From positions 1 to 64,000 of IMG/VR virus record IMGVR_UViG_3300038696_000205: a stretch of DNA of 64,000 nt. One strand, 5' to 3'. Positions within the stretch are counted from its first letter, which is position 1, and each line of letters begins with the position of its first letter. A program made the position numbers and the translations under genes. Origin of the DNA: a virus. Below, in pieces: positions 34,571 to 50,640 of this stretch. Below the pieces are notes generated by a model. It searched no databases, was not told where the DNA came from, and saw only the letters and a list, made by a program, of their open reading frames with translations.

Positions 34571-34702
34571 AATTTCTAAATTTTAAGGTTCATATTGTTT
34601 GATGGTGTAAAGATACAAAAACATATTTGATATTTATGTTAATAAATGTTAAAGTTTTTAATATTATAAAATATAATTTATTATTTAGCTATTGGACGTA
34701 AC

Positions 34703-34749
34703 GGAGTCTACTCTACTAAGGTGTTACCTCAGCCCGTATCTTTCTACAT
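34703..34749 (-). ncRNA. three-hairpin repeat element copy A (candidate sRNA)
   Basis: TGTAGAAAGATACGGGCTGAGGTAACACCTTAGTAGAGTAGACTCC behind its own promoter. Confidence 0.6.
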
Positions 34750-35150
34750 TGTAAAGGTACAAATAAAAATCCTAACTACAAAAGTAATTAGGATTTATTT
34801 TTAGTTAATATGTTATCTAGTTATCCTAGAATAACGATACGATAGCCAATATAATAGCTATTAATAAGCTACCTAGTACAAAGGTCGCTAAAAGTCTGGC
34901 TATAATTAAATAAATCATTCCAATTGTGATACTGTTTTTTAAGGTTTCCATGTTATATATTTTTAGGTTTATATTATTTGATACTCAAAGATAATTTTTT
35001 TATCCGTAACCACCAAAAATAATCGATGAACTACATCATTTTTATTAAAATTGGATATTATTAAATAATATTTGTTAATTCGTTAGATTATTAGAAATAT
35101 GGTTTGTATCTTTGCCATGAACAAATATTATAACCTTTAATTTTTAAGAT

Positions 35151-35447
35151 ATGGAAAGTTTGTCAATTTATGGTCGTGCGCACAATGTAACATCTGAAAT
35201 AGAAATCTTCAATGATTCCGAGTTCGGTATGGATGTGGTAATTTGTCGATATGATGATGGTATTGAGGTTCGCAGAAATTGCACCGAGTTTCATCACTTG
35301 TTCGACACCAAAGAAGAAATCTTATTCAGCCATTGCGCATCAGCTTTTGAGTCCGACATACATACTACGGGTGGAACGATTAGTTACGATAAGATTAAAT
35401 GGATTATTGTGGAACACGCTACCAAATTACATGATAGCCACCGATAA
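35151..35447 (+). CDS. hypothetical protein
   Basis: TATCTTTG box at 35107-14; terminator ~35462-90. Confidence 0.75.
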   Translation: MESLSIYGRAHNVTSEIEIFNDSEFGMDVVICRYDDGIEVRRNCTEFHHLFDTKEEILFSHCASAFESDIHTTGGTISYDKIKWIIVEHATKLHDSHR

Positions 35448-35566
35448 TGGCTAACATCAAATAAGAAACCCCTAAATGGGGTTTTTTTTGTTGCTTGTTT
35501 TATACAAAAAAAAAAGGTGCCGATTAATCAGCACCTTTAAATATGATGTACACAAATGTGTATATA

Positions 35567-35797
35567 TTAGTCTTGGTAGACTGGTTCTATTAATGTTCCG
35601 TCTTCCGTTTCTATTGTTTGACCCTCCCAAAGTACCATGTACTCTAGTTCATCCCATTCGTAGCCATCTATTAAGGCTTGGTTTACATTTTCATCATCGA
35701 CTACATCAAAGATGCTTGTACCGTCTGTAAGGTATTCAGAAGCTCTATATGGGTGGTCGATTGCTACTTTTAAATCGGCTAAGGTATTAATTTTCAT
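35567..35797 (-). CDS. hypothetical protein
   Basis: Promoter at 35822; start set at ATG 35797; VYWEG..IE.EDG..IEPVY-like C-terminus. Confidence 0.7.
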   Translation of the reverse strand: MKINTLADLKVAIDHPYRASEYLTDGTSIFDVVDDENVNQALIDGYEWDELEYMVLWEGQTIETEDGTLIEPVYQD

Positions 35798-35843
35798 GTG
35801 GTTTGTTTTATTGTTCCCTACAAAGATAAGTATAATAATTGTA

Positions 35844-36161
35844 TTATACAAATTTAATCGTAAGAAAAAATGAATTAATATCAGCTATGTGTTTGTAGTG
35901 TGTAAACGTTGCAATTTCTTTTTTGTTTTGGTAGGTGTAAGATAGTTCGCTATCGTATGATGGTTCATAATTTATTTTCATTACCATTGTACCCATGACA
36001 TAAAATGACACCTCATACGTTGTCATTTCTTCAATGAAATCATCATCGTTAATGAAGCGTTTTTCCATTTTCTTCTTTAGGGTTACGTTACCCTGAAAAC
36101 CGCTACGATTGTTTTTTACATTAAAGGTAGTGTTTTCAGCATCTATTTTATTATCGACCAT
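35844..36161 (-). CDS. hypothetical protein
   Basis: 105-aa ORF in early-type block. Confidence 0.7.
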   Translation of the reverse strand: MVDNKIDAENTTFNVKNNRSGFQGNVTLKKKMEKRFINDDDFIEEMTTYEVSFYVMGTMVMKINYEPSYDSELSYTYQNKKEIATFTHYKHIADINSFFLTIKFV

Positions 36162-36278
36162 TTGAAAATCATTTTCATCTTTGCCCCAAACTAAATCTGT
36201 ATCGTTCTTCTTTAATTTTGTTACTATAATATCATCAATGATATAGTCTTCTTGTTCGTGGGTGCTTGCTATACGGTC

Positions 36279-36542
36279 TTATATAATTTTAACAAACCCT
36301 TGTATTCTATTATTAAAGAATTTTTTAGCTATTGCATCATCAAAAGAGGACATTCCCATCAATATGGTATGTTCTTCGTCATACCTTGGATAGTTTGAGT
36401 TGCCTATCGTTTCTGGCAATAAATAATTAAAGGCGTATAGGTTATCTGAACCATCGGTTTTACCCTCGTTCTTATTTGATAGTTCAAGAAAGTTTTTAAT
36501 AAATTCGTTGGTTAGTTCCTGTAAATTATCAGCTATTTTCAT
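36279..36542 (-). CDS. hypothetical protein
   Basis: Own promoter and hairpin leader. Confidence 0.75.
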   Translation of the reverse strand: MKIADNLQELTNEFIKNFLELSNKNEGKTDGSDNLYAFNYLLPETIGNSNYPRYDEEHTILMGMSSFDDAIAKKFFNNRIQGFVKII

Positions 36543-36705
36543 GTGGGTTGTTTTGTTTAATACTCCCGTTGGTCGGGCTTACCACAAAGATACAAAATAA
36601 AAACAACCCCACCTAATTTTGATGGGGTTATTTTTATTAAAATTTTAAAATAAAACTTTAACATATTATATTTTGTAGTCTCAAATAAAAGGCTTATCTT
36701 TGTAG

Positions 36706-36795
36706 TGTGCAAGAGACACGGGCTGAGAAATCAGAAGAGTAGACTCCGTTATGCAACTGCGTCAGCGTTGCTAGACTCCGACCTACCTTATACTC
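36706..36795 (+). ncRNA. three-hairpin repeat element copy B (with extra hairpin)
   Basis: TGTGCAAGAGACACGGGCTGAGAAATCAGAAGAGTAGACTCC behind TTTG-N19-TATCTTTG. Confidence 0.6.
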
Positions 36796-36820
36796 AAATA
36801 TTTTGTTTTTAAAAAAAAAT

Positions 36821-36850
36821 AACCTAGAATAGAAATTTCTATTCTAGGTT
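36821..36850. terminator. 30-bp perfect palindrome, likely bidirectional terminator
   Basis: AACCTAGAATAGAAA/TTTCTATTCTAGGTT. Confidence 0.75.
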
Positions 36851-36859
36851 AAAGTTATT

Positions 36860-37030
36860 TTAGATTAATCCTATTGATAACAATACGGACTCGTGACCAT
36901 GCTCACAATGTCCATCAGGCTCAACCTCGCAACCATCTGAACAACAAGCTGGAACTACTGAATCCATACATTCAATCAACTCTAGTCCGTGTAATCTTAA
37001 TGCTGCACCCGCTGAAATTTTCTTACCCAT
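36860..37030 (-). CDS. small Cys/His-rich protein (56 aa)
   Basis: Manual translation PACCSDGCEVEPDGHCEHGHESVL; own promoter at 37067. Confidence 0.7.
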   Translation of the reverse strand: MGKKISAGAALRLHGLELIECMDSVVPACCSDGCEVEPDGHCEHGHESVLLSIGLI

Positions 37031-37105
37031 AATAATATATTTTAAGGTTTATGTTATTTGTTACATCAAAGATAAGAATAATAATTGAATAAACCTAATT
37101 TTGTT

Positions 37106-37489
37106 TTAAATCTTTTCAAAAAGTTCTTCTATACTATATGGTGTTGTATGTGAACCGCAATACTCCCGTAAATCTTTAGTAATTAAAACGTAATCATCAT
37201 AACTACCGATAGGCGCATAAACTTTAGCAGACGTAATAAAACCATAATCACCACTTTTAAGTTTTACTATCTCACCTACTTTATTACCCTCTAATTCTTT
37301 AATGTATCTCGGTTTGATAAATTTATTAACGTTTCCATCTTTATCACAAATAAATGAAAGTTCATTATGGATTAATTTTGGTTTATCCAATAGGATACTT
37401 TGTATCCAAAGTTCGTCACCCTCTTTAAAAATATGGGCAAGACTATTAATCGTTAACCTTGCCCTAACCTTAATTTTTTTACCTCTCAT
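37106..37489 (-). CDS. hypothetical protein
   Basis: 127-aa ORF. Confidence 0.75.
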   Translation of the reverse strand: MRGKKIKVRARLTINSLAHIFKEGDELWIQSILLDKPKLIHNELSFICDKDGNVNKFIKPRYIKELEGNKVGEIVKLKSGDYGFITSAKVYAPIGSYDDYVLITKDLREYCGSHTTPYSIEELFEKI

Positions 37490-37491
37490 AA

Positions 37492-37719
37492 TTATACAAA
37501 TCTGTTTATATCGTTACCGCACATTTGCTTTGCACGGCTAATAAATTCGTCCTTAGAAGCCATCATAAGAATATCTCTAGTGTCCTTATCGAACCAGTAA
37601 GAAACACCCTCATCTTTGGTATTTTCGACTAGAATCTCGTTTGTCATGTTGAATTGACCTTTAGCCATCCCATCACCCTCGTTTAATTCAAATTGACCTA
37701 TTTTTCTTAGAACTTTCAT
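37492..37719 (-). CDS. hypothetical protein, paralogue of 38983..39210
   Basis: KIGQFELN.GDG.AKG.FNMTN.ILVENTKDEGVSYWF shared. Confidence 0.8.
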   Translation of the reverse strand: MKVLRKIGQFELNEGDGMAKGQFNMTNEILVENTKDEGVSYWFDKDTRDILMMASKDEFISRAKQMCGNDINRFV

Positions 37720-37801
37720 AATAATAAGGTTTATATTGTTCGTTACTCAAAGATACGAAATAAAAACAACTCTACCAAATTAATGATAGAGTTATTTTAA
37801 A

Positions 37802-38137
37802 TTATTTTACATATTCGTCAACCCGTTCAATTTTGTTGTCGATAACATCTACCAAATCTTCAAAGTAAATATCTTCGATAACCTCTTTTACAGTACCCCT
37901 AGTACTAGTAAGGTAGATATTGTAAAGGTCTGAACCGTTAACTGAAATATAAACATGACCTTTATGGTGGTGTCCGTTTACCTTGAATCTAAGGAACTTA
38001 TTATACAAGTTCATCCATGCTTGACCACCCCAACTAAAAAACTTAAGACCGCCAGTCCTAAGAAGTCTCAAGGTTTCATTAACGTCTTGTTGTCTCATTG
38101 ATTTTGATAACTCTGATGTGTTTATTTTGTTTGACAT
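37802..38137 (-). CDS. conserved hypothetical protein
   Basis: LRFKVNGHHHKGHVYI..DLYNI..YFEDLVDVID..IE motif; own promoter. Confidence 0.8.
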   Translation of the reverse strand: MSNKINTSELSKSMRQQDVNETLRLLRTGGLKFFSWGGQAWMNLYNKFLRFKVNGHHHKGHVYISVNGSDLYNIYLTSTRGTVKEVIEDIYFEDLVDVIDNKIERVDEYVK

Positions 38138-38275
38138 GATATAAGGTTTAATTATTAATAATAATCAAAGATATGAAATAAAAACTATAACAACTAATTA
38201 TTTAACATTTAATTTTATTTTAAAACTTTAACATATTATATTTTGTAGTCTGGAATAATAGCCGTATCTTTACGG

Positions 38276-38335
38276 TGTACAAAGATACGGTCTGACCCAG
38301 CAAGTTAGTAGAGTAGACTCCGTTGCACCATATAC
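38276..38335 (+). ncRNA. three-hairpin repeat element copy C
   Basis: TGTACAAAGATACGGTCTGACCCAGCAAGTTAGTAGAGTAGACTCC behind TTTG-N19-TATCTTTA. Confidence 0.6.
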
Positions 38336-38382
38336 TGAAAATTCTTTTAAATGGAAAATGAGGTTTTTACACCTCATTTATT

Positions 38383-38906
38383 TTAGTAATTTTGGATTTG
38401 CTCCAAGACATATTTCTCATTATATGCGTGTGGATAACATTTTGAACATGATGCTTTACGCTTCCTTTTTTTATGTGAGGGACTTTCCGTACCACAAGAG
38501 TTACATTTCATGGTATATTTAGATTGAACGCTACTAGAGTGCTTAATACTAGAGCATCGCTCCCCATCGCAACCTATCGCTAGCGCAATACTTCTCCATT
38601 GCCAGTCGTGTGAACTTTTCCCCTAACCTCAAAATCTATGGCGTGGGCTATCTCGTGCAATATTGTATTTTTCCAAGTGGATAGCGGATTTTCACTATTT
38701 TCAATTATCCAACTGGATAGGGCAACCGTTTTCCTAGATTTACTACAAGTACCCAAAGCTGTTTTTTTCGTGTGGAAAACAAACCGCCATCCCAATTTAG
38801 CCATATTATAGACGTTACCTCTATAAACAAAATCGTTGGACATATACTCTAAAGCTAATTTCTTAATCGTTACTAGGTCGCTATTTACTTTTGTAGTTGT
38901 ACACAT
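38383..38906 (-). CDS. SprT-like zinc metalloprotease with C-terminal zinc ribbon, interrupted by -1 frameshift at G-GGA-AAA (38622-38616)
   Basis: LGTC, TILHEIAHA; -1 frame gives SHDWQWRSIALAIGCDGERC..KYTMKCNSCG..CSKC to TAA 38383. Confidence 0.8.
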
Positions 38907-38982
38907 AATATATGGTTTATTTGTTATCGTTAATCAAAGATATTAAATAATATTTAAAATTCTTAATTATTTAACATTTAAT

Positions 38983-39210
38983 TTAAACAAACCGATTAAT
39001 ATCATTACCGCACATTTGTTTAGCACGGCTAATAAATTCATCACTAGAGGCTAACATAAGTATATCCTTAGTATCGTTACCAAACCAGTAAGAAACTCCC
39101 TCATCTTTGGTATTTTCCACCAGTATTTTATTGGTCATATTAAATAGACCTTTAGCCGCTCCATCACCCTGATTTAATTCAAACTGACCTATTTTTTTTA
39201 AGATTTTCAT
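38983..39210 (-). CDS. hypothetical protein, paralogue of 37492..37719
   Basis: Near-identical sequence; start set at ATG 39210 downstream of promoter. Confidence 0.8.
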   Translation of the reverse strand: MKILKKIGQFELNQGDGAAKGLFNMTNKILVENTKDEGVSYWFGNDTKDILMLASSDEFISRAKQMCGNDINRFV

Positions 39211-39402
39211 GATATTATGGTTTAAATTATTTGTTACATCAAAGATACAAATAATAAATGTAACTACCAAATAAAAATATTAAATAAAAACTTGTGTATT
39301 AAAAAACTTTGTTTTATATTTGCAACCGCATTAAAGCAGACTATTGGGAATCACCAGTATAATGTACGGTATAATATACTGGTGAGTTTTAACATAATGT
39401 GT

Positions 39403-39789
39403 CTACCACATGCCGTAGGCTTCTCTATTTAGCTCTACTTTACTTTCAATCCATTTCAATACTTTTTCAGAATAGTAGGGTGTGCCGTTTTCTTCTAGGA
39501 AATTGCTTAACTTTCTTCGCACGTTTCTTGCATCTATACTGGTTTCCATTTTCAGGACGGTTCTTTTGCTGTAATAATCCCTGAACTCTAATGTGAGGTC
39601 GTTACCCTTAATGATAACACAAATAATACCACCTACCACGGACTCGCCAATCTTGAAACTTTTAGTTGCCTTTAACATCTTATAACTTATTTTGGTTAAT
39701 AATTTTAGCCGTTTGTCGAACCCATGTACACATTTGTGTATATTGCTATTCCACATATCAAAGATAATACTTTTAATTGAATCTACCAA
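39403..39789 (-). CDS. hypothetical protein
   Basis: ORF behind promoter at ~39760; true start is downstream of the track start. Confidence 0.7.
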   Translation of the reverse strand: MVDSIKSIIFDMWNSNIHKCVHGFDKRLKLLTKISYKMLKATKSFKIGESVVGGIICVIIKGNDLTLEFRDYYSKRTVLKMETSIDARNVRRKLSNFLEENGTPYYSEKVLKWIESKVELNREAYGMW

Positions 39790-39900
39790 ACATTATTTAC
39801 AAATAAAAAGGTTCGCACAATTAAGTACGAACCTCCTAACAAACAACAGGGAACCACCCCTATAACCAGTTTAGTACTGGTCAAACATCAACATCAAATC

Positions 39901-40386
39901 TTATATCGTTATTGATAGCGAACCATCTAAGGTTTTGCTATTTTCACCCCATGGCTTGAAACTAAAACCTATGTTTCTTTTTGGGAATATCTCTTTATAT
40001 AATTCAAAAGGTCTTCCCCAGTCGTCAGCATCACCATCACTAGTAACCTTTGTACTTCTAATGTGGTATTTAATTGACATTAAGAATAAACATACCGCCA
40101 AATCATAAGGCTTCCTAGCGGTCTTACAGAAATTATAATCAACCTCGCCCAAATCAATTAACATAGACTCATGGTCAAGTCCAAATTTAGAATTACCATT
40201 GAACGATATAAAGTCGTCATAGTAAACTACTCCATGTTTTTCACCCAAACCATCATGTAGGGTAAAGTGGTCTTCAAATTCAGGATTTGTAACAAAAGCT
40301 TCAATAGCTTTCATATCGGCTGTTAATTTCTTAAAGTTTCTTTTTGAAACTTCTCTTGACATACTAAAATAATGTGTGTAACCCAT
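39901..40386 (-). CDS. conserved hypothetical protein (MGYTHY family)
   Basis: MGYTHYF..FCKTARKPYDLAV..VTSDGD motifs. Confidence 0.85.
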   Translation of the reverse strand: MGYTHYFSMSREVSKRNFKKLTADMKAIEAFVTNPEFEDHFTLHDGLGEKHGVVYYDDFISFNGNSKFGLDHESMLIDLGEVDYNFCKTARKPYDLAVCLFLMSIKYHIRSTKVTSDGDADDWGRPFELYKEIFPKRNIGFSFKPWGENSKTLDGSLSITI

Positions 40387-40459
40387 AATATAATTGTTTA
40401 TTTGTTCCCTACAAAGATAATACTTTTAATTGAATCTACCAAACATTATTTAATATTTT

Positions 40460-40706
40460 TAATATAAAAGGTAAGAAGCATTGTTTATCTCGCCCATACA
40501 CCCTTTAAGGGGTGCGTTCCCAGTCGGCTCATGGCAGACTATTTGCGAATGCAGGAATATTTTACCTGTACCTTCCTCTTGTGGTACAGTACTCCTTACC
40601 AATTAATTAAACCGTCAACCCTCGGTGCTACTTTTAAGTTTCTAGTTATGTGAGGGTAATTTTATATAGTTCACTAATCTATACTTCACAATAACGGTTA
40701 TTTTCT
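40460..40706 (-). ncRNA. candidate structured ncRNA (~250 nt)
   Basis: Promoter 40713-44, no ORF, raised GC, several hairpins. Confidence 0.45.
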
Positions 40707-40755
40707 ACTCTGTAAAGATAATACTTTTAATTGAATCTACCAAATATATTTTGAT

Positions 40756-40977
40756 TTATTCTTCTCTAGCTAAAAAATTAGCTATCTCGTGCCGTAATAT
40801 GTTCCAACCTCCAGCGGTAGTTGCTTGGTCAAGTAATAACCTAGCTTCACCTATTACCCTACGTTTTTTTATGGTCGTTGGGGTGTATTTGTCAGTACCC
40901 TTAATAGTTGTTTTGGGTATAGGTCTATTGGTTATCGCCCTTAACCTATTTCTTTGGTTCGTATAATAAGCTTCCAT
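40756..40977 (-). CDS. hypothetical protein
   Basis: 73-aa ORF coupled to upstream gene. Confidence 0.65.
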   Translation of the reverse strand: MEAYYTNQRNRLRAITNRPIPKTTIKGTDKYTPTTIKKRRVIGEARLLLDQATTAGGWNILRHEIANFLAREE

Positions 40978-40978
40978 A

Positions 40979-41215
40979 TTACTCGTTTTCGATTATCCAA
41001 GTTTCAACTTCATCTATGAAGTCGGTAACTTCTTCCTCTTGCTCTTTACCGTCTTCATCATAATAGTCATCGGTAGTTGGTAGAGACACCCCAATCATAG
41101 TTCCTAGGTATTCATCGTTTACCGTGACCTCAACACCATTATCATAATCGTCATTAAAGAATAACCTACATACTACGTTATCATTTGTAGGGGTACTAAA
41201 GCTGAATTGTGACAT
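40979..41215 (-). CDS. acidic hypothetical protein
   Basis: Own promoter at 41242. Confidence 0.75.
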   Translation of the reverse strand: MSQFSFSTPTNDNVVCRLFFNDDYDNGVEVTVNDEYLGTMIGVSLPTTDDYYDEDGKEQEEEVTDFIDEVETWIIENE

Positions 41216-41260
41216 AATTTATTTGTTTTATTTGTTCTTAACAAAGATACGAATTAATAT

Positions 41261-41509
41261 TTAGTCTACCAAATTATTTTTAAATAAAATCAATAATTCT
41301 TCTCTATTCATAAAATGTAGTTTGGTATCACCATCTTGACTATAAAAATGTAGTATAGGGTACATTTTACCTTCTTCCTTATCGTACTCTATTAATATGG
41401 TTTCACCGTTTAAAGTCTCAAATGTATGTTCATCGCTTTTACGCTTAGGGTCGTTCACCATTAGTAAAACCAACTTGTTCATATCACTATTGGTCATTGT
41501 AAAGTACAC
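41261..41509 (-). CDS. hypothetical protein (possibly C-terminal part of a frameshifted gene starting at 41705 with a signal peptide)
   Basis: 82-aa ORF; upstream ORF MKTSLKFLIVILL.. follows promoter at 41727. Confidence 0.55.
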   Translation of the reverse strand: MYFTMTNSDMNKLVLLMVNDPKRKSDEHTFETLNGETILIEYDKEEGKMYPILHFYSQDGDTKLHFMNREELLILFKNNLVD

Positions 41510-41760
41510 CCACTTGAAACACGTTGGTTTATTTGAATGTACGCTTACCTTTTGCGTTTTTAAAACTTAGGGTCGAATGTGTTGTCGTCTTGGTCATTTC
41601 GGCTATCTCATAACCACCAAAGGACATCTTGCTATTAACGGTCTGGGCATTACCCACCCAAGAGGTTAATAGAATTACGATTAAGAATTTTAGTGAAGTT
41701 TTCATGGTTGTTTTTATTTGTTCATAGTAAAGATACGAATTAAAAACTAGACCACCAAAT

Positions 41761-42078
41761 TTATTTCCTAATAAATGCGAATAATTTTCTCTTTTTAAGA
41801 TAATTTAGTTTCTTCTCGTTTTTATAGGCTTCCTTCTCAAAGATTATATTCATATAAGCCGTTTTAACATCACCGTACTTTAAATACTGTATAAGAAAAT
41901 CAAATGCGTACCAAATATAAAATAATATTATCAATAATTCAAGTTGTTGTCTTAAATGAATATTCTCATGATTCAATCTAACTTGTGTAGCTTTCGACAT
42001 ATCCTTGAAAATGATAAAAGGGAATATCGTAATTGCAGCATATCCCCTTGGTACTAAATACTTATTGATTATTGTCAT
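41761..42078 (-). CDS. conserved hypothetical protein with HExxH motif
   Basis: AITIFPFII..HENIHLRQQLEL..FEKEAY.NE..YL..RK.FA. Confidence 0.8.
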   Translation of the reverse strand: MTIINKYLVPRGYAAITIFPFIIFKDMSKATQVRLNHENIHLRQQLELLIILFYIWYAFDFLIQYLKYGDVKTAYMNIIFEKEAYKNEKKLNYLKKRKLFAFIRK

Positions 42079-42120
42079 AACTTTGGTTAATTTCTATATA
42101 AATATGTAACAATGATAGAA

Positions 42121-42444
42121 TTAGTTTGTCCTATCTTCAATAAATGATTCAATTGTTTCATAAAAATCCTTATTTACCCAAGTTTCACCCTCATATTCTT
42201 TCTCAAATTCAGCAGTAAGGTTTGATGCTAGTGCGGATATACTCATTTTACCCTTCATTAAGCGCATTTCTCTAACTGGATTACCCAATACATCACAAAG
42301 ATATAATAGTTCGCTAGTGACCTCGAAAAACGTTTCCTGATAGGATACAAAGCCATTGGGCATATCTTCCGTGATTGCGGTCATAATATCCCAAGCACCC
42401 TCAACATTTTTTGGGTTACCATCTTTAATTGGCATAATTTTCAT
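42121..42444 (-). CDS. hypothetical protein
   Basis: Start set at ATG 42444 since the track start is inside the -7 box. Confidence 0.75.
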   Translation of the reverse strand: MKIMPIKDGNPKNVEGAWDIMTAITEDMPNGFVSYQETFFEVTSELLYLCDVLGNPVREMRLMKGKMSISALASNLTAEFEKEYEGETWVNKDFYETIESFIEDRTN

Positions 42445-42670
42445 CTTGTTTGTTTTATTTGTTCTTAGCAAAGATACTAAATAAAAACTAATCTACCAAA
42501 TTTATTTTTATTCATCTGATTTACTTAGTCCAAGCCCACATAAAAATCCACCTGATAACATAATTATAACATACATTATCATAAATTTAGGTGACGTAAA
42601 TAATAATTCATAATAAAACATCACCGATGAAAACCCAATAGCTAATAATAAAAGCCCTATAATCGTTATG

Positions 42671-42868
42671 TTATGTGATTTCATTTTTTTCTGTTTTAAG
42701 ATTTTTGATTTGTTTTTTATATTTCCCTAACAATTCCTCATGCATACCATCATTTAATAGTTTCAACTTGTTTAGATATTTTCCCACTCCACAATTTTCA
42801 ATGGTCTTCGTTCCCATCCTTAAACCTCTTAAACCATTTTCAATTCTAGTGATATATAATTTTTCCAT
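42671..42868 (-). CDS. small hypothetical protein
   Basis: Behind TATATTTG box. Confidence 0.65.
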   Translation of the reverse strand: MEKLYITRIENGLRGLRMGTKTIENCGVGKYLNKLKLLNDGMHEELLGKYKKQIKNLKTEKNEIT

Positions 42869-42909
42869 ACTACAAATATAACTGATTAATTATTAATTTA
42901 CGAATATTT

Positions 42910-43500
42910 CTACGATTTAATTTCTAAACCTTCATACCACTTATCTTCGATATGCTCACTAATACCATTGGTACTCAAATTATCACCATAGAACCCATAA
43001 CAAGAGTCTATATGGTCGCCATTTTCATCGGTTACCTCAAAACCATATACCTCACCACTAATCCAATTATTAAGCGTATCAACCTCTGAAACCGCAATAT
43101 CGTTAGCCATCTTAATATATTTCTTGGTAACGTTTTTAATTCCCCAATTCTCCCTGATATCTTTTTTGGTTACAACTACGAACCCAATGGTTCCAGAATC
43201 CCACCTACAATTAAATGGGTACCCATTGCTAGTGCTGATTGAAGTGCCAGAATGTTGATATAGGTTAACGGGAATGACTACAGCGCAGTCAAGTTCTTTA
43301 CTGATTTTTTCAGCACCATCGATTTTAAAACTATCCCGACTATCATAATCGGGTAAGTTGATATTGTGCTTATCACCCAAATGGTTATGCCTACCAAAGA
43401 AAATCATTTCACTTAGGTTATACCAATTTCTAGGTGACTCGGAATCTGTATCGTTTACTATCTTAATTGTTTCGTTTCCTAATGTGAATTCAGTTATCAT
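42910..43500 (-). CDS. conserved hypothetical protein
   Basis: SPRNW.NL, LYQHSG.SIS, WDSG.IGF, GEVYGF, DSCYGFYG motifs typical of a phage/plasmid early protein family. Confidence 0.85.
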   Translation of the reverse strand: MITEFTLGNETIKIVNDTDSESPRNWYNLSEMIFFGRHNHLGDKHNINLPDYDSRDSFKIDGAEKISKELDCAVVIPVNLYQHSGTSISTSNGYPFNCRWDSGTIGFVVVTKKDIRENWGIKNVTKKYIKMANDIAVSEVDTLNNWISGEVYGFEVTDENGDHIDSCYGFYGDNLSTNGISEHIEDKWYEGLEIKS

Positions 43501-43565
43501 GTTGTTTGTTTTATTTGTTCAATACAAAGATACTAAATAAAAATAACCCTACCAAATAAAATTCA

Positions 43566-43811
43566 CTATTCCTTATAATATTTTTCTAAGCTATACTCTT
43601 TAAGTTTAGCTCTGTTTTTAGCCAACACAACTTTAACGGACTCATTATCCATGCTCCAAACATTGGAACTTATTAATCCCTGTATTAGTTTTTCATCATT
43701 TTTTAACTCTAGGTATTTTTTCTTACGTAGTCTATACGCCCTCCAATCTTCAAAAGAATACAGCAACTCAAAAAAAAAGAATAGAATATTTAAAAATAAT
43801 TTCTTAATCAT
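43566..43811 (-). CDS. hypothetical protein
   Basis: 81-aa ORF. Confidence 0.65.
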   Translation of the reverse strand: MIKKLFLNILFFFFELLYSFEDWRAYRLRKKKYLELKNDEKLIQGLISSNVWSMDNESVKVVLAKNRAKLKEYSLEKYYKE

Positions 43812-43999
43812 AATTATTTAAGATTATAAAATTGTTCAAGTTGTTCTAACTCGTTTTCATCTTCACTTGTATCGTTATCCCTATTCTTATCATATTGAAT
43901 AGAAGCGATTAAAGTACCCCTATGTAAGTTTACATGGAATTTACTTGCACTAGGTTTAAAGTTATATGTTTTCATAAGTCAAAGATACGAATTAAAGTC

Positions 44000-44320
44000 T
44001 TATAACCCAAATGTTTTAACATTTTTTATTTCCTTAAATTCAAATATGATTTTCTTAGGGAATAAAAAATTCTTAAAACTAATTTCCTCCCTAGTCATAT
44101 TAACTGGATTACCTTTTGAATCAAAAGGGGAAACCTCATATAATTTATTATTGATATGAACCTCACCATCCGTAAAAAACCATGAGATATATGAGTAATT
44201 ATAGTCCAGGCGTTCCAATTCACTCTTTAACAAGTGCGCACCAATACAACCTGATTTAGACCATGTTTGATAACCTCTGTTTATTATCCTATTGGTTAGT
44301 TTTGTTATTATAGTTTCCAT
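44000..44320 (-). CDS. hypothetical protein
   Basis: 106-aa ORF; TATTTAT motif upstream. Confidence 0.7.
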   Translation of the reverse strand: METIITKLTNRIINRGYQTWSKSGCIGAHLLKSELERLDYNYSYISWFFTDGEVHINNKLYEVSPFDSKGNPVNMTREEISFKNFLFPKKIIFEFKEIKNVKTFGL

Positions 44321-44417
44321 AATTAACGTATTTATTATATAAATATACTGCTTTTTTATATAAAAAACAAAAAAAAGGCACTAAAAAGCACTTTTTTAAC
44401 ATATTTTACCCTAAAAC

Positions 44418-44816
44418 CTAGATATTCCTATTTAAAATCTCGTAACCATCATCTTTGAATTTTGTTAACATACTCTATTTCCATGTTTGGAAATCCTTAT
44501 GTTTCTTCAATTTTGACAATAAAAGGGGAAAGTTTACAGTATAATGTTTTTCATCCTTGGATAAACACCAACCTTTTGACTGATTTACGGTTACAAAGTT
44601 GTAATTTTCAACAATTTCAAGAATTTCGCTCTCGGTTTCTAAGTTTCCGTACTTCTTATGTACCTCGTTTGAGTTACTGGATAGGTCGTTAGGACCTCCC
44701 TGACCTCGATTGGACACATCGCAGATATATTCCCCATTATCCCATAACTCGCCACTAAAACAAGCCGTTTCTTCTGATAACGCTTCATTGAATTTAATCT
44801 TTCTTACTTCTAATAT
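44418..44816 (-). pseudogene. hypothetical protein with ATA at the expected start and in-frame TAG at 44477-75
   Basis: SEET.CF.G.L..NG....VSNRGQGG.N motif; frame continues SMLTKFKDDGYEILNRNI after TAG. Confidence 0.55.
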
Positions 44817-44919
44817 AACTGAATTGTTTATTTGTTCAATACTCCCGTTGGTCGGGCTTACCACAAAGATACAAAATAAAAACTAATCTACCAAATTAAT
44901 GATAGATTAGTTTTATAAT

Positions 44920-45255
44920 TTAAGCCTGTTGTGGAGAATTAACCCCATCGGCAAACAAACCACCAAATTTAAAATCAACACCACCTTTCGTAGAGAAAAT
45001 ATCGCTATCTTCATTACCATAGGTTAGGATAATATCAATATCCTTATGCTCGGTCAATTCTAGCTCGGCTATTGCTTCTGCAATTGTCATTGGTTCAATG
45101 TCACCGAATTCACTTATGAATATTTCTCGGTAATCATCATGCTCACTAAAGATAGTTACATTCTGCTTTCCGCAATATCTTGTGATAGTTCCCAATAACG
45201 GTTTATTGGGTTGGTTACTCGTTTTTAACTTGTCAATTAATTCTTGAACTGTCAT
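44920..45255 (-). CDS. hypothetical protein
   Basis: Own promoter; two MT..ELI..L-like repeats. Confidence 0.75.
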   Translation of the reverse strand: MTVQELIDKLKTSNQPNKPLLGTITRYCGKQNVTIFSEHDDYREIFISEFGDIEPMTIAEAIAELELTEHKDIDIILTYGNEDSDIFSTKGGVDFKFGGLFADGVNSPQQA

Positions 45256-45334
45256 GATATTATTGTTTTGTTTTAATGTTAATCAAAGATACAAAATAAA
45301 AACTAACCCACCAAATAAATGATGGGTTATTTTT

Positions 45335-45715
45335 TTAAAAGAATTTATCTCCAATGGATAAATTAAAAGTCTCCTCAAACCAATCCCATATATCGTATTT
45401 ATGCGTGCCAACTACAAAATGTAAAAATTCTTCTTCTATGTGTTCATCTTCTTCTTCGTCACATGGAATATCTCCCAACTTAACCCAAAGTGCCTTGTAA
45501 TCAATATCCATTAAATATGAATCCGTATTACATTCTGGACAACCCTTTAGAAAGTCACGCTCACTAGGTTCATCATTTAACCTTTGCACCGCACCACCAG
45601 TTTGCTCGGTTGCCGTTGGTGTCTCGTTTTCATCGTTGATGTCGAACTCAACCAAGATAAGGTCTTCTTCATCACCGTACCACCCACAATTATTACACTC
45701 ACAAAAATTTTTCAT
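45335..45715 (-). CDS. hypothetical zinc-ribbon protein
   Basis: CNNCGWYG..GCPECNTDSYLMD; IWDWFEE.F. Confidence 0.8.
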   Translation of the reverse strand: MKNFCECNNCGWYGDEEDLILVEFDINDENETPTATEQTGGAVQRLNDEPSERDFLKGCPECNTDSYLMDIDYKALWVKLGDIPCDEEEDEHIEEEFLHFVVGTHKYDIWDWFEETFNLSIGDKFF

Positions 45716-45794
45716 AACGCTTGTTTTATTTGTTCCCTACAAAGATACTAAATAAAAATAACCCTACCAAATATTTGATAAGGTTATTTTATAT

Positions 45795-46001
45795 TTATTT
45801 AACCACATAGTATTCACTTGACACACTCAAAAAATATTTCCAATCGTTTTCGGTAGAGTTTTCATCAGAATCAAACTCATATTGGCTAACTGGGTGAGTT
45901 CTATATTTTACAAAAAACTTACCATCAATATATTTTCTAATGGTAAAGGTTCGTTTACTTTTATTTGACGTTACCTTAATCGTTTCTCTTTGTTTTCTCA
46001 T
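45795..46001 (-). CDS. conserved small hypothetical protein
   Basis: N.SKRTFTIR..KYRT..EF..END.W..FL motif. Confidence 0.75.
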   Translation of the reverse strand: MRKQRETIKVTSNKSKRTFTIRKYIDGKFFVKYRTHPVSQYEFDSDENSTENDWKYFLSVSSEYYVVK

Positions 46002-46043
46002 AATACATGCTCTATAACGGCAGTTACATTAGGAGCTTTTACG

Positions 46044-46262
46044 TTATTCGCCTAATGAAACAGTAACCTCGGTATCACTATACCACTCGTTTACATGAAT
46101 TATCTCGGTATATATATCGGAATCTTCTGGAGCAAGTCCTGCGGTGTTAGCTTGCTCTAGAATGGCATCCGCAATGTTTTGCGCCATCTCGTTCTTATCT
46201 TCATCACTTGTGATTTTATCACTTGTGGTAATCGTAACCATAAATCTAGTTTCCTTATTCAT
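46044..46262 (-). CDS. small acidic protein
   Basis: Own promoter at 46287. Confidence 0.75.
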   Translation of the reverse strand: MNKETRFMVTITTSDKITSDEDKNEMAQNIADAILEQANTAGLAPEDSDIYTEIIHVNEWYSDTEVTVSLGE

Positions 46263-46305
46263 TTTGTTTGTTTTATTTGTTCAATACAAAGATACGAATT
46301 AAAAT

Positions 46306-46578
46306 CTAATCTACCAAACTATTTTTATAATATAATTCAAAACTTCTGTTCTTATAATCATCTGAATTATACCACTTATTTAAAGCACATTCCCATTTGA
46401 AGTCTTTAAATTTATTATAGTAGCTAGCATCACAACGTCTATTTTTTAAATAGAACTTATCCAAAATTTCCTGTTCATCAACACCCTCTAAAATAACCTC
46501 ACTAATGTTGAATCTCTCATTACCAGAAAAATTATAGTGGTCTATTTTTCTAACATATTCCTGTACAATAGCTTACAT
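46306..46578 (-). pseudogene. 90-codon ORF with TAA at codon 2
   Basis: ATG TAA GCT ATT GTA CAG.. open to TAG 46306; own promoter at 46606. Confidence 0.65.
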
Positions 46579-46703
46579 AATATATTTGTTTATTTGTTGC
46601 TTAATCAAAGATACGATTAATAATCTTATAAACCTAATAATATTTAAACAAAAATAAATTAAAATATGTTTGGTAGAACCAAATAAAAGCCGTATCTTTA
46701 CGG

Positions 46704-46765
46704 TGTACAAAGATACGGGCTGACCTAGCAAGTTAGAAGAGTAGACTCCGACCTACCTTATACTC
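46704..46765 (+). ncRNA. three-hairpin repeat element copy D
   Basis: TGTACAAAGATACGGGCTGACCTAGCAAGTTAGAAGAGTAGACTCC behind TTTG-N20-TATCTTTA. Confidence 0.6.
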
Positions 46766-46870
46766 AAATTAAAATAAAAAATAAAAATAGGGTGCGAATC
46801 ACCACACCCTACTCTAATATAAAAAATAAAACAACCAAATTATGGAATATCTGGTATTTTTTAATAACTT

Positions 46871-47071
46871 CTAAGGTTGGTAGAAGTCAATTAATATTTC
46901 AAAAATCCCTAAATCAGGATTATATTCTATAAATTCTTCAATCGATAAATTTGTATTATCGTTCTTAGCTATATATGCATCCCATGCATCACATACCGTA
47001 ATAAATCCACAATCGGAACTTACAGTTCCAATTATTTCTTCATCTAAATCGTGCAATTGTATTCCGCTCAT
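46871..47071 (-). CDS. small hypothetical protein
   Basis: Own promoter at 47098. Confidence 0.7.
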   Translation of the reverse strand: MSGIQLHDLDEEIIGTVSSDCGFITVCDAWDAYIAKNDNTNLSIEEFIEYNPDLGIFEILIDFYQP

Positions 47072-47145
47072 ATTCTTATATTTATTTGTTGCTTAATCAA
47101 AGATACGATTAATAATCGTATAAACCTAATTTAATTTCATTAAAA

Positions 47146-47352
47146 TTAATCCTCTTGATATACAAAAGGTTGTATTGTAATTGAATCGGAAGCATCCTGT
47201 AATACGCTAACATCAATATTAACACCCTCGAAATTAAGTGTATTAAAATCTTCATCCATATAACACCACATACCATTTTTATTGTAAACCACAATATTAA
47301 CTTGTGGGAAAAATGATTTTACATGTTGAAATGCTGTAACTACTTTTGACAT
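47146..47352 (-). CDS. small hypothetical protein
   Basis: Own promoter at 47376. Confidence 0.7.
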   Translation of the reverse strand: MSKVVTAFQHVKSFFPQVNIVVYNKNGMWCYMDEDFNTLNFEGVNIDVSVLQDASDSITIQPFVYQED

Positions 47353-47435
47353 AACATTTTTTTTTATTGCTTAATCAAAGATACAAATAAAAATCCTAAC
47401 TACCAAAAGTAATTAGGATTTTTATTAATTAATTT

Positions 47436-48263
47436 TTATGCATTAACAACCTCGTTATTTTCTACATTAATAATAAAGTCGTTATTATCTAGGTTATCCT
47501 TATTAACCCCTTTTGTGCCCTTGCCAGTCATTAACTTATACTTTAGACCTACAATGACATTATCCTTATCTAAGAACCTTAAATCGCTTTCGTCACCGTT
47601 AACAACCTCATAGCCCATATAAGTTTTAGGTAAGTCGCTTTCGTTACGTACACCAAAAACCATAGCAACATTATGACCGTTTTTTAACATTGCCATACTT
47701 TTTTCATCGTTCGTTTCAGAACGGCTAAAAGTTAAATGCAAATTTTTAGGTAGGCCGGCATTATACCTTAAATAATTTTTGGTATAATCGTAAAATTGAA
47801 TTTCAGGAAATAACTCAAAGATATTTTTACCATCTTTAATCTTAAATTTCTCAAATCTAATATCAGCCGTACCGTTTAAACGTACTGCAAACTTTTTATA
47901 CCTTAATACATCACCGTTACGTTTTAGCGTTAAATCGCCTAATATGGCATCATGCTTTGCTTCTATTTTAGTTAGTTCATCTACCAACTGGTTAAGAAAT
48001 TTTACCCTATCGGCTAAAAAATACTCGGTCTTATTAACTTTGCCCGCTTGAACTTTGTCGAACCTAGCAGCACCACTACTAAAGAGACAAGCAGCAGCAC
48101 AACCCTTGCTCGCATGACTACATAAATTGATACCCTTACTATTTTGGGTAAAAGGAGACATATACATTATATAAGTGGTATATGAAAATTTTTCACCCTT
48201 AATGGTTTTGCTATTTTCAGTAGATAATAAATTGTTGGGAACTCGGTAATTTAAAGTTTTCAT
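47436..48263 (-). CDS. GP88-like phage protein
   Basis: LC..ASKGCAAACL, VRLNGTADI, QFYDYTK, HLTFS.SE, VNGDESDLRFLD, VGLKYK; start set at ATG 48263. Confidence 0.75.
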   Translation of the reverse strand: MKTLNYRVPNNLLSTENSKTIKGEKFSYTTYIMYMSPFTQNSKGINLCSHASKGCAAACLFSSGAARFDKVQAGKVNKTEYFLADRVKFLNQLVDELTKIEAKHDAILGDLTLKRNGDVLRYKKFAVRLNGTADIRFEKFKIKDGKNIFELFPEIQFYDYTKNYLRYNAGLPKNLHLTFSRSETNDEKSMAMLKNGHNVAMVFGVRNESDLPKTYMGYEVVNGDESDLRFLDKDNVIVGLKYKLMTGKGTKGVNKDNLDNNDFIINVENNEVVNA

Positions 48264-48342
48264 GTTGTTTGTTTTTTTGTTCAATACAAAGATACAATAT
48301 ATAATTGAATTGACCTAATAATATTAAATAAAATTTACTTAA

Positions 48343-48576
48343 TTAAAATGAACCTATAAGAGTCTGTTTAACCTGACTACCATAGCACCAACTACCATTA
48401 TCCAAAACCAGTATAACACTACGACCCCTTACATCAACCCATGGCACTTCTTCAACATCATCACCAGACTTGTTAACACAATTAATTTCAATACCTTTAA
48501 CCACCACTAACTTAGGCGCATCACTACCAAAACAACCCCTCCAAGATACTACATCACCAACTTTTAAATTTACCAT
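48343..48576 (-). CDS. small hypothetical protein
   Basis: LKVGDVVSWRG.FG..P..LDNG.W.YG.Q. Confidence 0.75.
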   Translation of the reverse strand: MVNLKVGDVVSWRGCFGSDAPKLVVVKGIEINCVNKSGDDVEEVPWVDVRGRSVILVLDNGSWCYGSQVKQTLIGSF

Positions 48577-48791
48577 AATTTCTATTGTTTTATTTGTTCA
48601 ATCAAAGATACAAATTAATATCTTATAAACCTAATTTCCCTTATGTGATTTTAAAAACATTATAGAATTTTCATAATTCTTAATCATTTTAAAATAAGCC
48701 TTAATTATAATATCATTATCTTTAGTAAGAACTTCTAACCTTACCTTATACAATTGATATTCCAATAATTTAATAGCTAACCATTTCATAA

Positions 48792-49019
48792 TTATAATTC
48801 TTTTAATTCATAATCCCTAGTACCAAAACCATTTACAAATAACCATGCCCGTATTTCATTCTTAGCATCATCGCCAATAGATTTTTCTATATTAAAAAAT
48901 AACTTAGGAATATCATTAACAATCTCATATACATCAATAAATATAATACCATTAAGTTCAGCCTTACCATTGCGAACCCGTGTTTGTTTATCAACCGTAA
49001 AATAAAGTCTACCTTTCAT
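48792..49019 (-). CDS. small hypothetical protein
   Basis: Start set at ATG 49019 downstream of promoter at 49043. Confidence 0.7.
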   Translation of the reverse strand: MKGRLYFTVDKQTRVRNGKAELNGIIFIDVYEIVNDIPKLFFNIEKSIGDDAKNEIRAWLFVNGFGTRDYELKEL

Positions 49020-49152
49020 AACTCCTGTTTTAATCGTTCCCCACAAAGATACAAAACAATATCTTATAAACCTAATAAAAACATAACGAAAATAAAATAA
49101 AAATAATTGCAATTATGTTTGGTGGAACCAATTATTAATCGTACCTTTACAA

Positions 49153-49215
49153 TGTGCAAGAGACACGGGCTGACCCAGCAAGTCAGAAGAGTAGACTCCA
49201 CCGAACCCTATACCC
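49153..49215 (+). ncRNA. three-hairpin repeat element copy E
   Basis: TGTGCAAGAGACACGGGCTGACCCAGCAAGTCAGAAGAGTAGACTCC behind TTTG-N20-TACCTTTA. Confidence 0.6.
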
Positions 49216-49289
49216 AAATTTTAAATTAATAAAAAAATTTGCAAAGATAAGAAATAAATCCTACCCTCGCAAATCTTTTATGTTAAATC

Positions 49290-50219
49290 TTATACCGCCA
49301 TCTCACTAGCCGCAAATTTGAAACTCTTATCATTAATGGTATAGTTACCACTTAACATAAGGCTCTCAACCCTCCCATTGTCACGCTTAGGGGCGTTTCT
49401 ATCATGTGTTGACCATCTAGTAAACCCACTATGTAATCCCCATAGATTTTTGCCCTTATCAGATATTTGATGCCCTATATTACCATATATGGTGTCCAAT
49501 ACATTTTCAACCCTAGTAGGCAAATCTTGGTCTAACCTACTATACCCATAAACAGTCTTAACCGCCCTATGTATAGTCTTATCGTTAATATCGAACCTAC
49601 TAAATTTATTGTAGGTGTCAACCAAATTTAAAGAGTTACGCAATTGACGTTCTATCAAAGTTGGTAATTCCCCTTTACGTACATTTAAACTAGCAGTATG
49701 TTTCAACTTACTCTGACCATCTTTGTAAAATTGATAAAATTGATTCATACAACTTACAGTCAAATCACCCACACCAACACTTAAACCAGTACTACCATCA
49801 TTACTATCGACCAAGGTAATATAACGCTTAATTACATCACCGTTTACATCACCATCACCCTCTATCGATAATTGTAAAAATACCTTTCGACCACCATTAA
49901 TACTACCACCCTTAACAACGTCCAAAGTATTTGAATACTTACTAGGTAAATTCCCAATACCCTCCAACATTAATTCCACAATTTCATCATTCTGCGAAAC
50001 CGTATAACCCTTTTTAACACTATTGATAATCTCACCAGTCTTATCATTGTATAACATAAAATAAGGGGTCTTAACCTCCTCGATACATTCTACCATACCA
50101 CCATTATCACCAATGGTCAAACCATTACGCAAAGCAACACTAGGTAACTTCTCAATCCTGAAATCTAAATCATACTTAATTAAAATTTCCCTCGCCAATA
50201 CATCTAAATTCTTATCCAT
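49290..50219 (-). CDS. DUF932/DUF945-family phage protein
   Basis: Y...QN, GGSINGGRKVFLQ, LVDSNDGSTG, VSCMNQ, KHT, NLWGL..FT.W.TH motifs. Confidence 0.8.
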   Translation of the reverse strand: MDKNLDVLAREILIKYDLDFRIEKLPSVALRNGLTIGDNGGMVECIEEVKTPYFMLYNDKTGEIINSVKKGYTVSQNDEIVELMLEGIGNLPSKYSNTLDVVKGGSINGGRKVFLQLSIEGDGDVNGDVIKRYITLVDSNDGSTGLSVGVGDLTVSCMNQFYQFYKDGQSKLKHTASLNVRKGELPTLIERQLRNSLNLVDTYNKFSRFDINDKTIHRAVKTVYGYSRLDQDLPTRVENVLDTIYGNIGHQISDKGKNLWGLHSGFTRWSTHDRNAPKRDNGRVESLMLSGNYTINDKSFKFAASEMAV

Positions 50220-50368
50220 AATATAACAGTTTAATTATTGTTCATGGCAAAGATATAACTTAATATCTTATAAACCTAATATTTTAATTAAAAACTTTAA
50301 AATAATTTTATTTAAAAACTTTAACATATTATATTTTGTAGAACCAATTATTAATCGTACCTTTACAA

Positions 50369-50430
50369 TGTACAAAGATACAGGCTGACCTAACAAGTTA
50401 GAAGAGTGGACTCCGACCTACCCTATATCG
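50369..50430 (+). ncRNA. three-hairpin repeat element copy F
   Basis: TGTACAAAGATACAGGCTGACCTAACAAGTTAGAAGAGTGGACTCC behind TTTG-N19-TACCTTTA. Confidence 0.6.
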
Positions 50431-50514
50431 AAATGTTGTCCTTATTTAGATTTAATAAAAATAAGAAAATAAATCAAAAATATTTGGTAGATGGGAATAA
50501 AAACCATACCTTTG

Positions 50515-50640
50515 CAATGTATAAATGTCAAAGTGTGTTTGTGGTGGCAAGATTGCACCTAAAACGACTTAACCATATAGGTTGGGTTAACTATGCGTAT
50601 AGAGGTATTATAACGTTCTCTTGCCATCTGAACACATAAA
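50515..50640 (+). ncRNA. candidate long-hairpin ncRNA
   Basis: TTTG(50483)-N20-TACCTTTG(50507); GGTGGCAAGA/TCTTGCCATC and GTGTTT/GAACAC stems. Confidence 0.4.

Follow-up and report, generated by a model that had tools for sequence, protein, structure and literature searches.

A multicopy family of candidate small RNA genes with a covarying hairpin and a near-invariant core on phage-like DNA

To our knowledge, phage-encoded small RNAs are few and most of them are confined to one phage group. Antitermination signals of the nut/put type and of ribosomal RNA (rrn) leaders consist of a boxB hairpin and a boxA, and FopS/GibS of Bacteroides thetaiotaomicron are reportedly multicopy, paralogous and separately promoted small RNAs, encoded on the chromosome and transcribed from TAnnTTTG promoters. 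Two further systems belong to phages: RNA anti-CRISPRs (Racrs) are solitary CRISPR-repeat-like phage RNA units, defined by mimicry of the host CRISPR repeat (PMC10651486), and the promoter-early stem-loops (PeSLs) of T4-type phages are defined as strong promoters with stem-loops in hyperplastic regions (PMC2839356). Here we describe a family of putative small non-coding RNA genes, six copies of which lie in positions 1 to 64,000 of the IMG/VR virus record IMGVR_UViG_3300038696_000205. This stretch, called the window below, is the first 64 kb of a 119-kb record with a completeness estimate of 34%.

Like the antitermination signals, the element adjoins a promoter, and its variable hairpin, whose loop is often GNRA-like in family members, precedes a conserved linear block. 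Unlike them, it has a core that does not resemble boxA (which reads GTTCTTTGA in one Bacteroidota ribosomal RNA (rRNA) operon), it faces against the genes of the window, and the terminators lying directly downstream misfit a cis-acting antiterminator. FopS/GibS, compared by description only, are similar multicopy promoter-driven genes from the same phylum, whereas the phage family occurs only on phage-like DNA. Racrs are likewise short promoter-driven hairpin-plus-tail phage RNAs, encoded singly and regarded as abundant decoys for a host protein, and here, too, a virus carries single units, each under a promoter of its own. In contrast to Racrs, the core has no CRISPR-repeat counterpart in 401 Bacteroidota genomes, copies differ in their hairpin, and conservation is centred on a 3' module that would be single-stranded or a loop. 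With PeSLs the locus has in common, judged by its letters, repeated strong host-type early promoters with stem-loops among small orphan genes of a hyperplastic region. PeSLs are, however, co-oriented with the open reading frames (ORFs) that they flank and are not known to contain a transcribed sequence conserved between distant phages, whereas our element appears to be transcribed itself, contains an invariant 11-mer beside its covarying hairpin and is mostly antisense to genes (five copies of six).

Copies in the window and distribution of the family

A preliminary description, made without database searches, had placed six copies in the window, and reading of the sites, a pattern search and a covariance model all agree with these positions. 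Each copy contains the core GAGTRGACTCC, at 34713-34703 on the minus strand and at 36737-36747, 38311-38321, 46739-46749, 49189-49199 and 50404-50414 on the plus strand. The gapped pattern GGCTGA-N4-14-AGAGTRGACTCC has 5 matches in the window against 0.00 expected by chance, the sixth copy reading GGTCTGA at that place, and a covariance model built from relatives elsewhere gives exactly six window matches (E-values 7e-17 to 1e-7; next best 0.58). No further copies were found in the remainder of the 119-kb record. The copies are dispersed, 1.2-8 kb apart and without tandem arrangement, and five of them do lie opposite to the surrounding genes, as had been noted, on the plus strand within a long minus-strand array of small genes; the copy at 34703 is on the gene strand. 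The order of parts is TTTG-N19-20-TAnnTTTR, 3 nt, a P1 hairpin, GGG/GGC, a P2 hairpin, RA, GAGTRGACTCC and a C-rich tail, and mechanically called ORFs with GTG or TTG starts overlap some copies.

The expectation that the element belongs to no known RNA family held when Rfam 15 was searched with the whole window, which returned no match at gathering thresholds; a permissive Rfam search around copy 4 remained at chance level (lowest E-value 0.043, for an opposite-strand match to a terminator portion of the L20 leader). ARAGORN detected no transfer RNA or transfer-messenger RNA (tmRNA) gene in the window. A full-text literature search for the core in both orientations retrieved only unrelated primers and similar sequences, the supplementary text of the 2023 catalogue of viral structured RNAs (PMC10690425) lying outside that search.

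Two pattern scans of IMG/VR with the core fixed, followed by profile filtering, gave at least 143 distinct copies, and the covariance model recognised at least 137 copies in at least 100 sequences. Genomes carry from 1 to 6 copies, and many contigs carry 2-5. The carriers are well over a hundred uncultured aquatic phages and two cultured phages of Flavobacteria-type hosts, and the sequencing runs linked to the sequence are all DNA runs from salt-lake and lake-water metagenomes, with no RNA run among those listed. In a third scan, in which one P2 type plus CGGAA was specified and the core was left free, about 61 of the 85 unique matches were true elements, 51 of them with the exact GAGTAGACTCC, the other matches being chance occurrences in coding sequence. 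Because the exact core is recovered even in this core-free scan, its near-invariance does not stem from the way the searches were made.

When prokaryote genomes (596 Gb) were scanned, 25 stretches were obtained, in which true copies occurred only on contigs of about 3-39 kb from metagenome-assembled genomes (MAGs), several with 2-5 copies, and none was on a contig of hundreds of kb. Among cultured phages, Tenacibaculum phage Larrie (ON950054) has three covariance-model matches, at about 16.9, 18.8 and 19.4 kb, and Flavobacterium phage immuto one diverged copy (GAGTAGAC, then GGGCC). In both genomes the elements run opposite to the small genes around them, within gaps whose annotation is missing or doubtful. 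The family is restricted to phage-like DNA. With promoters of their own, covariation in P2, no Rfam match and this confinement, the copies behave as the multicopy RNA-like gene family proposed in the preliminary description, and we are highly confident that a real phage RNA gene family exists.

Predicted anatomy of the RNA and upstream motifs

The predicted layout is an optional P1, a variable P2, a near-invariant GAGUAGACUCC, RNC-CUAC and a semi-conserved tail. P2 was said to keep its pairing despite changes in length, and this pairing is retained in all six window copies and accompanied by strong covariation across the family. RNAalifold on a MAFFT alignment gave only the GAG/CUC pairing, without covariation, and a structure-aware realignment was then used for P2; in the model-guided alignment, both sides change in 5 of the 6 outer pairs (an example is a pair that reads CG 47 times, UA 44 times and AU 16 times), and compensated cells number 204, against 59 in shuffles and 17-82 with a slid partner. 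P2 pairs also rank top in a mutual-information screen of the family alignment, which yielded no pairs besides P2, no loop-tail pseudoknot and no 5'-3' closing helix. Many P2 loops of the family are GNRA or GACAA/GAAAA.

The letters reported for P1, TGTA/TAC[GA] in four copies and TGTG/CACG in two, are borne out (TGTA/TACG in three, TGTA/TACA in one, TGTG/CACG in two) and represent a single compensatory event. Family-wide, P1 is weak and optional, with a mean of -2.1 kcal/mol against -0.7 kcal/mol in shuffles, and it is missing from copies without the Bacteroidota promoter box. For P3, the letters GAG-TRGA-CTC are indeed present, but the helix drawn from them is unsupported: GAG/CUC does not covary in the family and the variants GCG, AAG, GAC, GAA and GTG break the pairing. 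The proposed model of three hairpins lacks support, P2 being the one helix demonstrated. An alternative pairing of GUAG with CUAC, seven bases past the core, is about 95% paired; a few changes are consistent with it, namely GUAU facing GUAC, shared by several related copies, and CUGC, CUGU and UUAC.

As to the tail, which had been called C-rich and variable, it is present but semi-conserved (xxC-NNNN-C-YU-AUA) and not freely variable. It runs RNC, four bases, C, YU and AUA, the four bases being CUAC in 127 of the 143 copies among the matches listed and CUGC, GAAC, GUAC, GUGC, CUGG, GCAC, an ACG type or a few singletons in the others. A U-tract after the possible GUAG/CUAC hairpin ends 35 of the 76 Bacteroidota-type copies. 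One P2 type resembles what we take to be the 5' end of tmRNA, and the tail what we take to be the 3' end of 16S rRNA; these likenesses do not hold family-wide. In a variant subfamily (immuto, L236, 2990-3060, MW353175; and contig L266) GACUCC-RNC-CUAC is replaced by GACGGG-CCG-GUAC or GACGGA-GCA-GUAC, the CUCC stretch being exchanged for its near-complement.

An individual promoter for each copy had been proposed, and a Bacteroidota-type match, TTTG-N18-21-TAnnTTTR, does end 3 nt before P1 in all six; matches to the motif number 49 in the whole window, where 9.9 would be expected. In the family, the Bacteroidota -7 box lies upstream of 76 of the 143 unique copies among the matches listed, and the remaining copies follow other recurrent motifs, of the GCTATACA type (directly before GGCC), the TGATAATAnnTATGG type or the GGATTTGACAAAGGG type, which are presumably other promoter types. 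The recurrence of different upstream motifs argues for selection on expression of the RNA itself.

Individual copies and their surroundings

Copy 1 (34681-34782, minus strand; covariance-model E-value 1e-7), the only one on the gene strand, has its promoter at 34782-34752, P1 at 34748-34745 (TGTA) and 34738-34735 (TACG), P2 at 34732-34716 and the core GAGTAGACTCC at 34713-34703, and its tail, GTT-ACGT-CC, belongs to the minority ACGY class. The others are all on the plus strand. Copy 2 (36672-36799; model match 36708-36797, E-value 2e-9) comprises a promoter at 36672-36702, P1 at 36706-36709 (TGTG) and 36717-36720 (CACG), P2 at 36723-36726 (CTGA) and 36731-36734 (TCAG) with a GAAA loop, and the core at 36737-36747; an inserted hairpin (GCAAC..GTTGC, 36753-36771), a second TAGACTCC (36772-36779) and a GAC-CTAC tail follow. 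An element in contig L205 has the same architecture, with the inserted hairpin and the duplicated TAGACTCC within one RNA. In copy 3 (38242-38339; E-value 2.5e-11) the promoter is at 38242-38272, P1 at 38276-38279 and 38286-38289, P2 at 38292-38296 (CTGAC) and 38304-38308 (GTTAG) and the core at 38311-38321, with the tail GTT-GCAC-C and a bidirectional terminator-like hairpin downstream at 38356-38379.

Copy 4 (46669-46767), the best match of the model (E-value 7e-17), has its promoter at 46669-46700, P1 at 46704-46707 and 46714-46717, P2 at 46720-46724 and 46732-46736, the core at 46739-46749 and the tail GAC-CTAC-CTTATAC, directly beyond which lies a minus-strand terminator hairpin (46784-46815). 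Copy 5 (49118-49217; E-value 2.6e-12), with promoter at 49118-49149, P1 at 49153-49156 (TGTG) and 49164-49167 (CACG), P2 at 49170-49174 (CTGAC) and 49182-49186 (GTCAG), core at 49189-49199 and tail ACC-GAAC-CCTATAC, converges on the 3' end of a DUF932 gene (49290-50219, minus strand). From this same gene the promoter of copy 6 (50335-50365) is divergent; this copy (50335-50432; E-value 1.5e-14) has P1 at 50369-50372 (TGTA) and 50379-50382 (TACA), P2 at 50385-50389 and 50397-50401, the core variant GAGTGGACTCC at 50404-50414 and the tail GAC-CTAC-CCTATAT.

Several further motifs were observed around the copies. A 25-nt block, AACTTTAACATATTATATTTTGTAG, is identical upstream of three of them (36654-36678, 38224-38248 and 50317-50341, plus strand), and its core, ATGTTAAAGTT on the other strand, recurs beside elements in the unrelated contigs L039, L042, L069 and L080; it may be an upstream element common to the divergent promoters. 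At copies 3 and 4 (38262-38290 and 46690-46718) the -7 box forms with P1 a perfect 10-bp inverted repeat, CCGTATCTTT..AAAGATACGG, which scores as terminator-like on the minus strand and is followed by a T-rich run at copy 4 only. A nearly palindromic motif, CTTATTTAGAATGATTATAAAT, stands 10-30 nt past the tail in L043, L082, L176, L195, L212, L222, L229 and L231, with a weaker version after copy 6 (about 50441-50470, plus strand), and could be a protein binding site or a further promoter type. The plus-strand promoter match at 50483-50514, 70 nt past copy 6, would drive a 40-codon ATG ORF (50517-50639) and not an RNA element. On the minus strand, positions 34767-60644 hold about 30 terminator-promoter modules, one ahead of most small genes (for example 47426-47376, 45790-45740 and 44914-44864), each made of a hairpin with TTTGGTAG (the -33 box, TTTG) in its loop, a T-run and GTATCTTTG (the -7 box), the 3' side of the hairpin running into TATCTTTG; this is a PeSL-like architecture in a Bacteroidota phage.

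With respect to both neighbouring genes, 50 elements of the family have the same orientation and 36 the opposite one. The element is consistently antisense in Bacteroidota-box phages with small-gene arrays and sense to downstream genes in the other carriers. In many copies strong hairpins, and often a fresh upstream motif, come after the tail, and together with the mixed orientation this indicates stand-alone small genes rather than leaders.

Among the neighbouring genes, DUF932 is bracketed by two elements in the window and in three other contigs; as an obligate partner it was rejected, being absent from all five carriers without the Bacteroidota box, three of which are at least 96% complete. 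The window record encodes GP88 (PF17338; window 47436-48284, minus strand), a protein with three invariant cysteines (C55, C62 and C66); so do 5 of the 10 other carrier genomes tested and 18 retrieved loci, compared with 268 of 50,697 cultured phage records (0.5%). It was likewise discarded as an obligate partner, being missing from the complete genomes G404, Larrie and immuto. No Foldseek match was obtained for the GP88 model (predicted local distance difference test, pLDDT, 77), VIA-align gave radical S-adenosylmethionine (radical-SAM) and TIM-barrel enzymes, radical-SAM leading, with Z-scores of at most 5.5 that are within noise, and searches of PDB sequences with GP88 and DUF932 gave no matches; GP88 may be an Fe-S enzyme. 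The sole protein common to four carriers (the window phage, Larrie and two carriers of the other type with complete genomes) at the BLASTP level is thymidylate synthase. Its gene in the window (8134-10209, minus strand) is split by an intein with Hint/intein-splicing domains and a LAGLIDADG endonuclease, and homologues lacking an intein occur in other carrier phages. Since thymidylate synthase is the only common protein and DUF932 and GP88 are dispensable, a host partner is favoured over a phage partner.

Possible functions of the RNA

Our best guess, offered tentatively, is that the element specifies an RNA made early and in abundance that acts in trans, its UAGACUCC module serving as a decoy or sponge for a host factor. 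Each copy would be a separate gene for a small non-coding RNA of about 65-145 nt, set in an array of small, early-looking genes and read by the host RNA polymerase from a strong promoter of the Bacteroidota type. The RNA would consist of a sequence-free clamp hairpin (P2, at times with P1 first) and the near-invariant 3' module RA-GAGUAGACUCC-RNC-CUAC, of which ACUCCRNC may form an 8-nt loop closed by a short GUAG/CUAC stem. It would act in trans, the UAGACUCC module being bound sequence-specifically by a conserved host factor of the defence or gene-expression machinery, and the presence of several copies per genome, and at times of two modules in one RNA, would raise the dose sufficiently for that factor to be titrated or redirected. 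We favour this reading because selection appears to act on the RNA under several presumed promoter types, the invariant module lies beside a sequence-free hairpin and the copy number is high, and also because no host RNA counterpart, phage RNA target or universal phage protein was found. Its bolder form is a new kind of phage inhibitor or hijacker, in which a UAGACUCC decoy on a clamp hairpin captures a conserved Bacteroidota host protein, mimics no host RNA and is made in many copies from the first minutes of infection; this we consider possible but rather doubtful. Defence nucleases and components of the machineries for transcription, RNA decay and translation are candidate targets.

Several considerations weigh against the decoy. 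Its transcription, timing, trans action and protein binding are what we infer from sequence, expression and early timing resting on the host-type promoters and on the position among small early-like genes. Outside P2 the family alignment reveals no demonstrable RNA structure; the GUAG/CUAC pairing is nearly invariant and is broken by the minority tail class with ACGY in the CUAC position, and because single-sequence folding energies of the copies are not significant (z from -3.7 to +0.6), the structure rests on comparison. Membership of the family is biased towards the core by the first two scans, in which the core was fixed, and the core-free scan was a single one with one P2 type. Finally, remote homologues of a phage partner could escape BLASTP.

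Among the alternatives, it is unlikely, though conceivable, that the RNA is a base-pairing regulator whose C-rich module (the ACUCC loop or UAGACUCC) would be a seed for a host mRNA or stable RNA, as in the C-rich-loop small RNAs of Gram-positive bacteria. Seed-bearing small RNAs usually show an exposed conserved stretch beside a structural hairpin, and here an invariant, probably exposed stretch of 8-11 nt adjoins such a hairpin; the rare exchange of CUCC for GGRG in immuto and L266 is also what a pairing or kissing surface might undergo. Targets, however, were not apparent: outside the elements, nothing in the phage genome is complementary to the core, against one Bacteroidota rRNA operon the element paired no better than shuffled queries, and the exact 13-mer RAGAGTAGACTCC, counted on either strand of the 401 Bacteroidota genomes, occurs 22 times, no more often than its reversed control (one 3-copy contig among these occurrences looks like phage). 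A Shine-Dalgarno motif is present in only 5 of 192 phage genes, whose leaders are A-rich, and therefore CUCC is not masking ribosome binding sites.

Quite unlikely, in our estimate, is a cis-acting transcription element, be it a nut/put-like antiterminator, an insulator, a sequence-specific terminator or an R-loop or primer site. The start of the element at about +1 of the promoter would suit it, as would the GNRA or GACAA/GAAAA loops of P2, which recall lambdoid boxB and precede a conserved linear block as in rrn/nut leaders, the U-tract that ends 35 of the 76 Bacteroidota-type copies after the possible GUAG/CUAC hairpin, and the co-direction of copies without the Bacteroidota box with downstream genes. 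But the element is directed opposite to the gene array in the window, in L190, L224 and L152 and in Larrie and immuto, so that antitermination would yield only antisense RNA; the core is unlike boxA, as mentioned above, the P3 hairpin is weak (-4.3 kcal/mol), and a cis signal does not need an identical 11-mer under different upstream motifs, presumed to be different promoter types.

We regard as very unlikely a mimic of a defence RNA, either an RNA anti-CRISPR (a solitary repeat unit) or, for type III toxin-antitoxin systems, a pseudo-antitoxin. Such a role would fit a phage-borne unit that stands alone, has its own promoter and consists of a hairpin and a tail; hairpin and core together span about 37 nt, the size of a CRISPR repeat, and the unit is set among small early genes, where counter-defence genes usually reside. 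Racrs share the hairpin-plus-tail anatomy (PMC10651486). The idea of an antitoxin or host RNA mimic, raised in the preliminary description, nonetheless finds no support in the 13-nt core, which in the 401 genomes stays at the level of its reversed control and never lies in arrays, a result valid for the genomes searched, in which diverged repeats could be missed. The covariance model matches only phage-like contigs in three MAGs; moreover, the hairpin varies between copies of one phage, unlike the repeats of one array, and there are no tandem repeats. Nor does the locus resemble a type III antitoxin (ToxI-like) system, the copies being dispersed and the neighbouring proteins without annotated family matches, with no search made for a ToxN-like fold.

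A catalytic or ligand-binding RNA, whether it cleaves itself as a small ribozyme, soaks up a signalling nucleotide as an aptamer or serves a phage enzyme such as GP88 as substrate or cofactor, seems barely probable. Small ribozymes and aptamers typically have variable helices around invariant unpaired nucleotides, an arrangement seen here as well, and GP88 is enriched in carriers and combines three invariant cysteines with weak radical-SAM-like fold matches; yet there is one supported helix, no long-range covariation and no Rfam ribozyme or riboswitch match, GP88 is missing from three complete carriers and its fold matches are at noise level (Z-score 5.5). We give as little credence to a mobile promoter cassette, in which the repeats would serve recombination or gene shuffling like the PeSLs of T4-type phages and the RNA would be a by-product: the copies do separate cassettes of small orphan genes, the region is rich in hairpin-plus-promoter modules, and DUF932 is flanked by two copies in four contigs, but recombination repeats do not need compensatory hairpin changes, the 11-mer is conserved under different upstream motifs across phages that share almost no proteins, and the inversion of five of the six copies relative to genes does not suit it either. 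A guide RNA with a variable 3' end, akin to CRISPR RNA (crRNA) or omega-RNA, which had also been suggested, was rejected, the tails falling into few classes conserved between unrelated phages and having no complements in the 119-kb phage genome above shuffled tails (best at most 30 bits, against up to 32 bits).

The carriers of the element thus share almost no proteins, yet keep an 11-nt block that hardly ever changes. The presence of this RNA in such phages, often in many copies, under different upstream motifs and with a near-constant block, indicates that phages infecting Flavobacteria-type hosts, major degraders in lakes and oceans, share a strong selective pressure. With two cultured carriers, Larrie and, with a diverged copy, immuto, the function of the RNA is directly testable; its partner could reveal a new mechanism of host take-over or counter-defence, and the RNA itself could provide a compact RNA tool for Bacteroidota.

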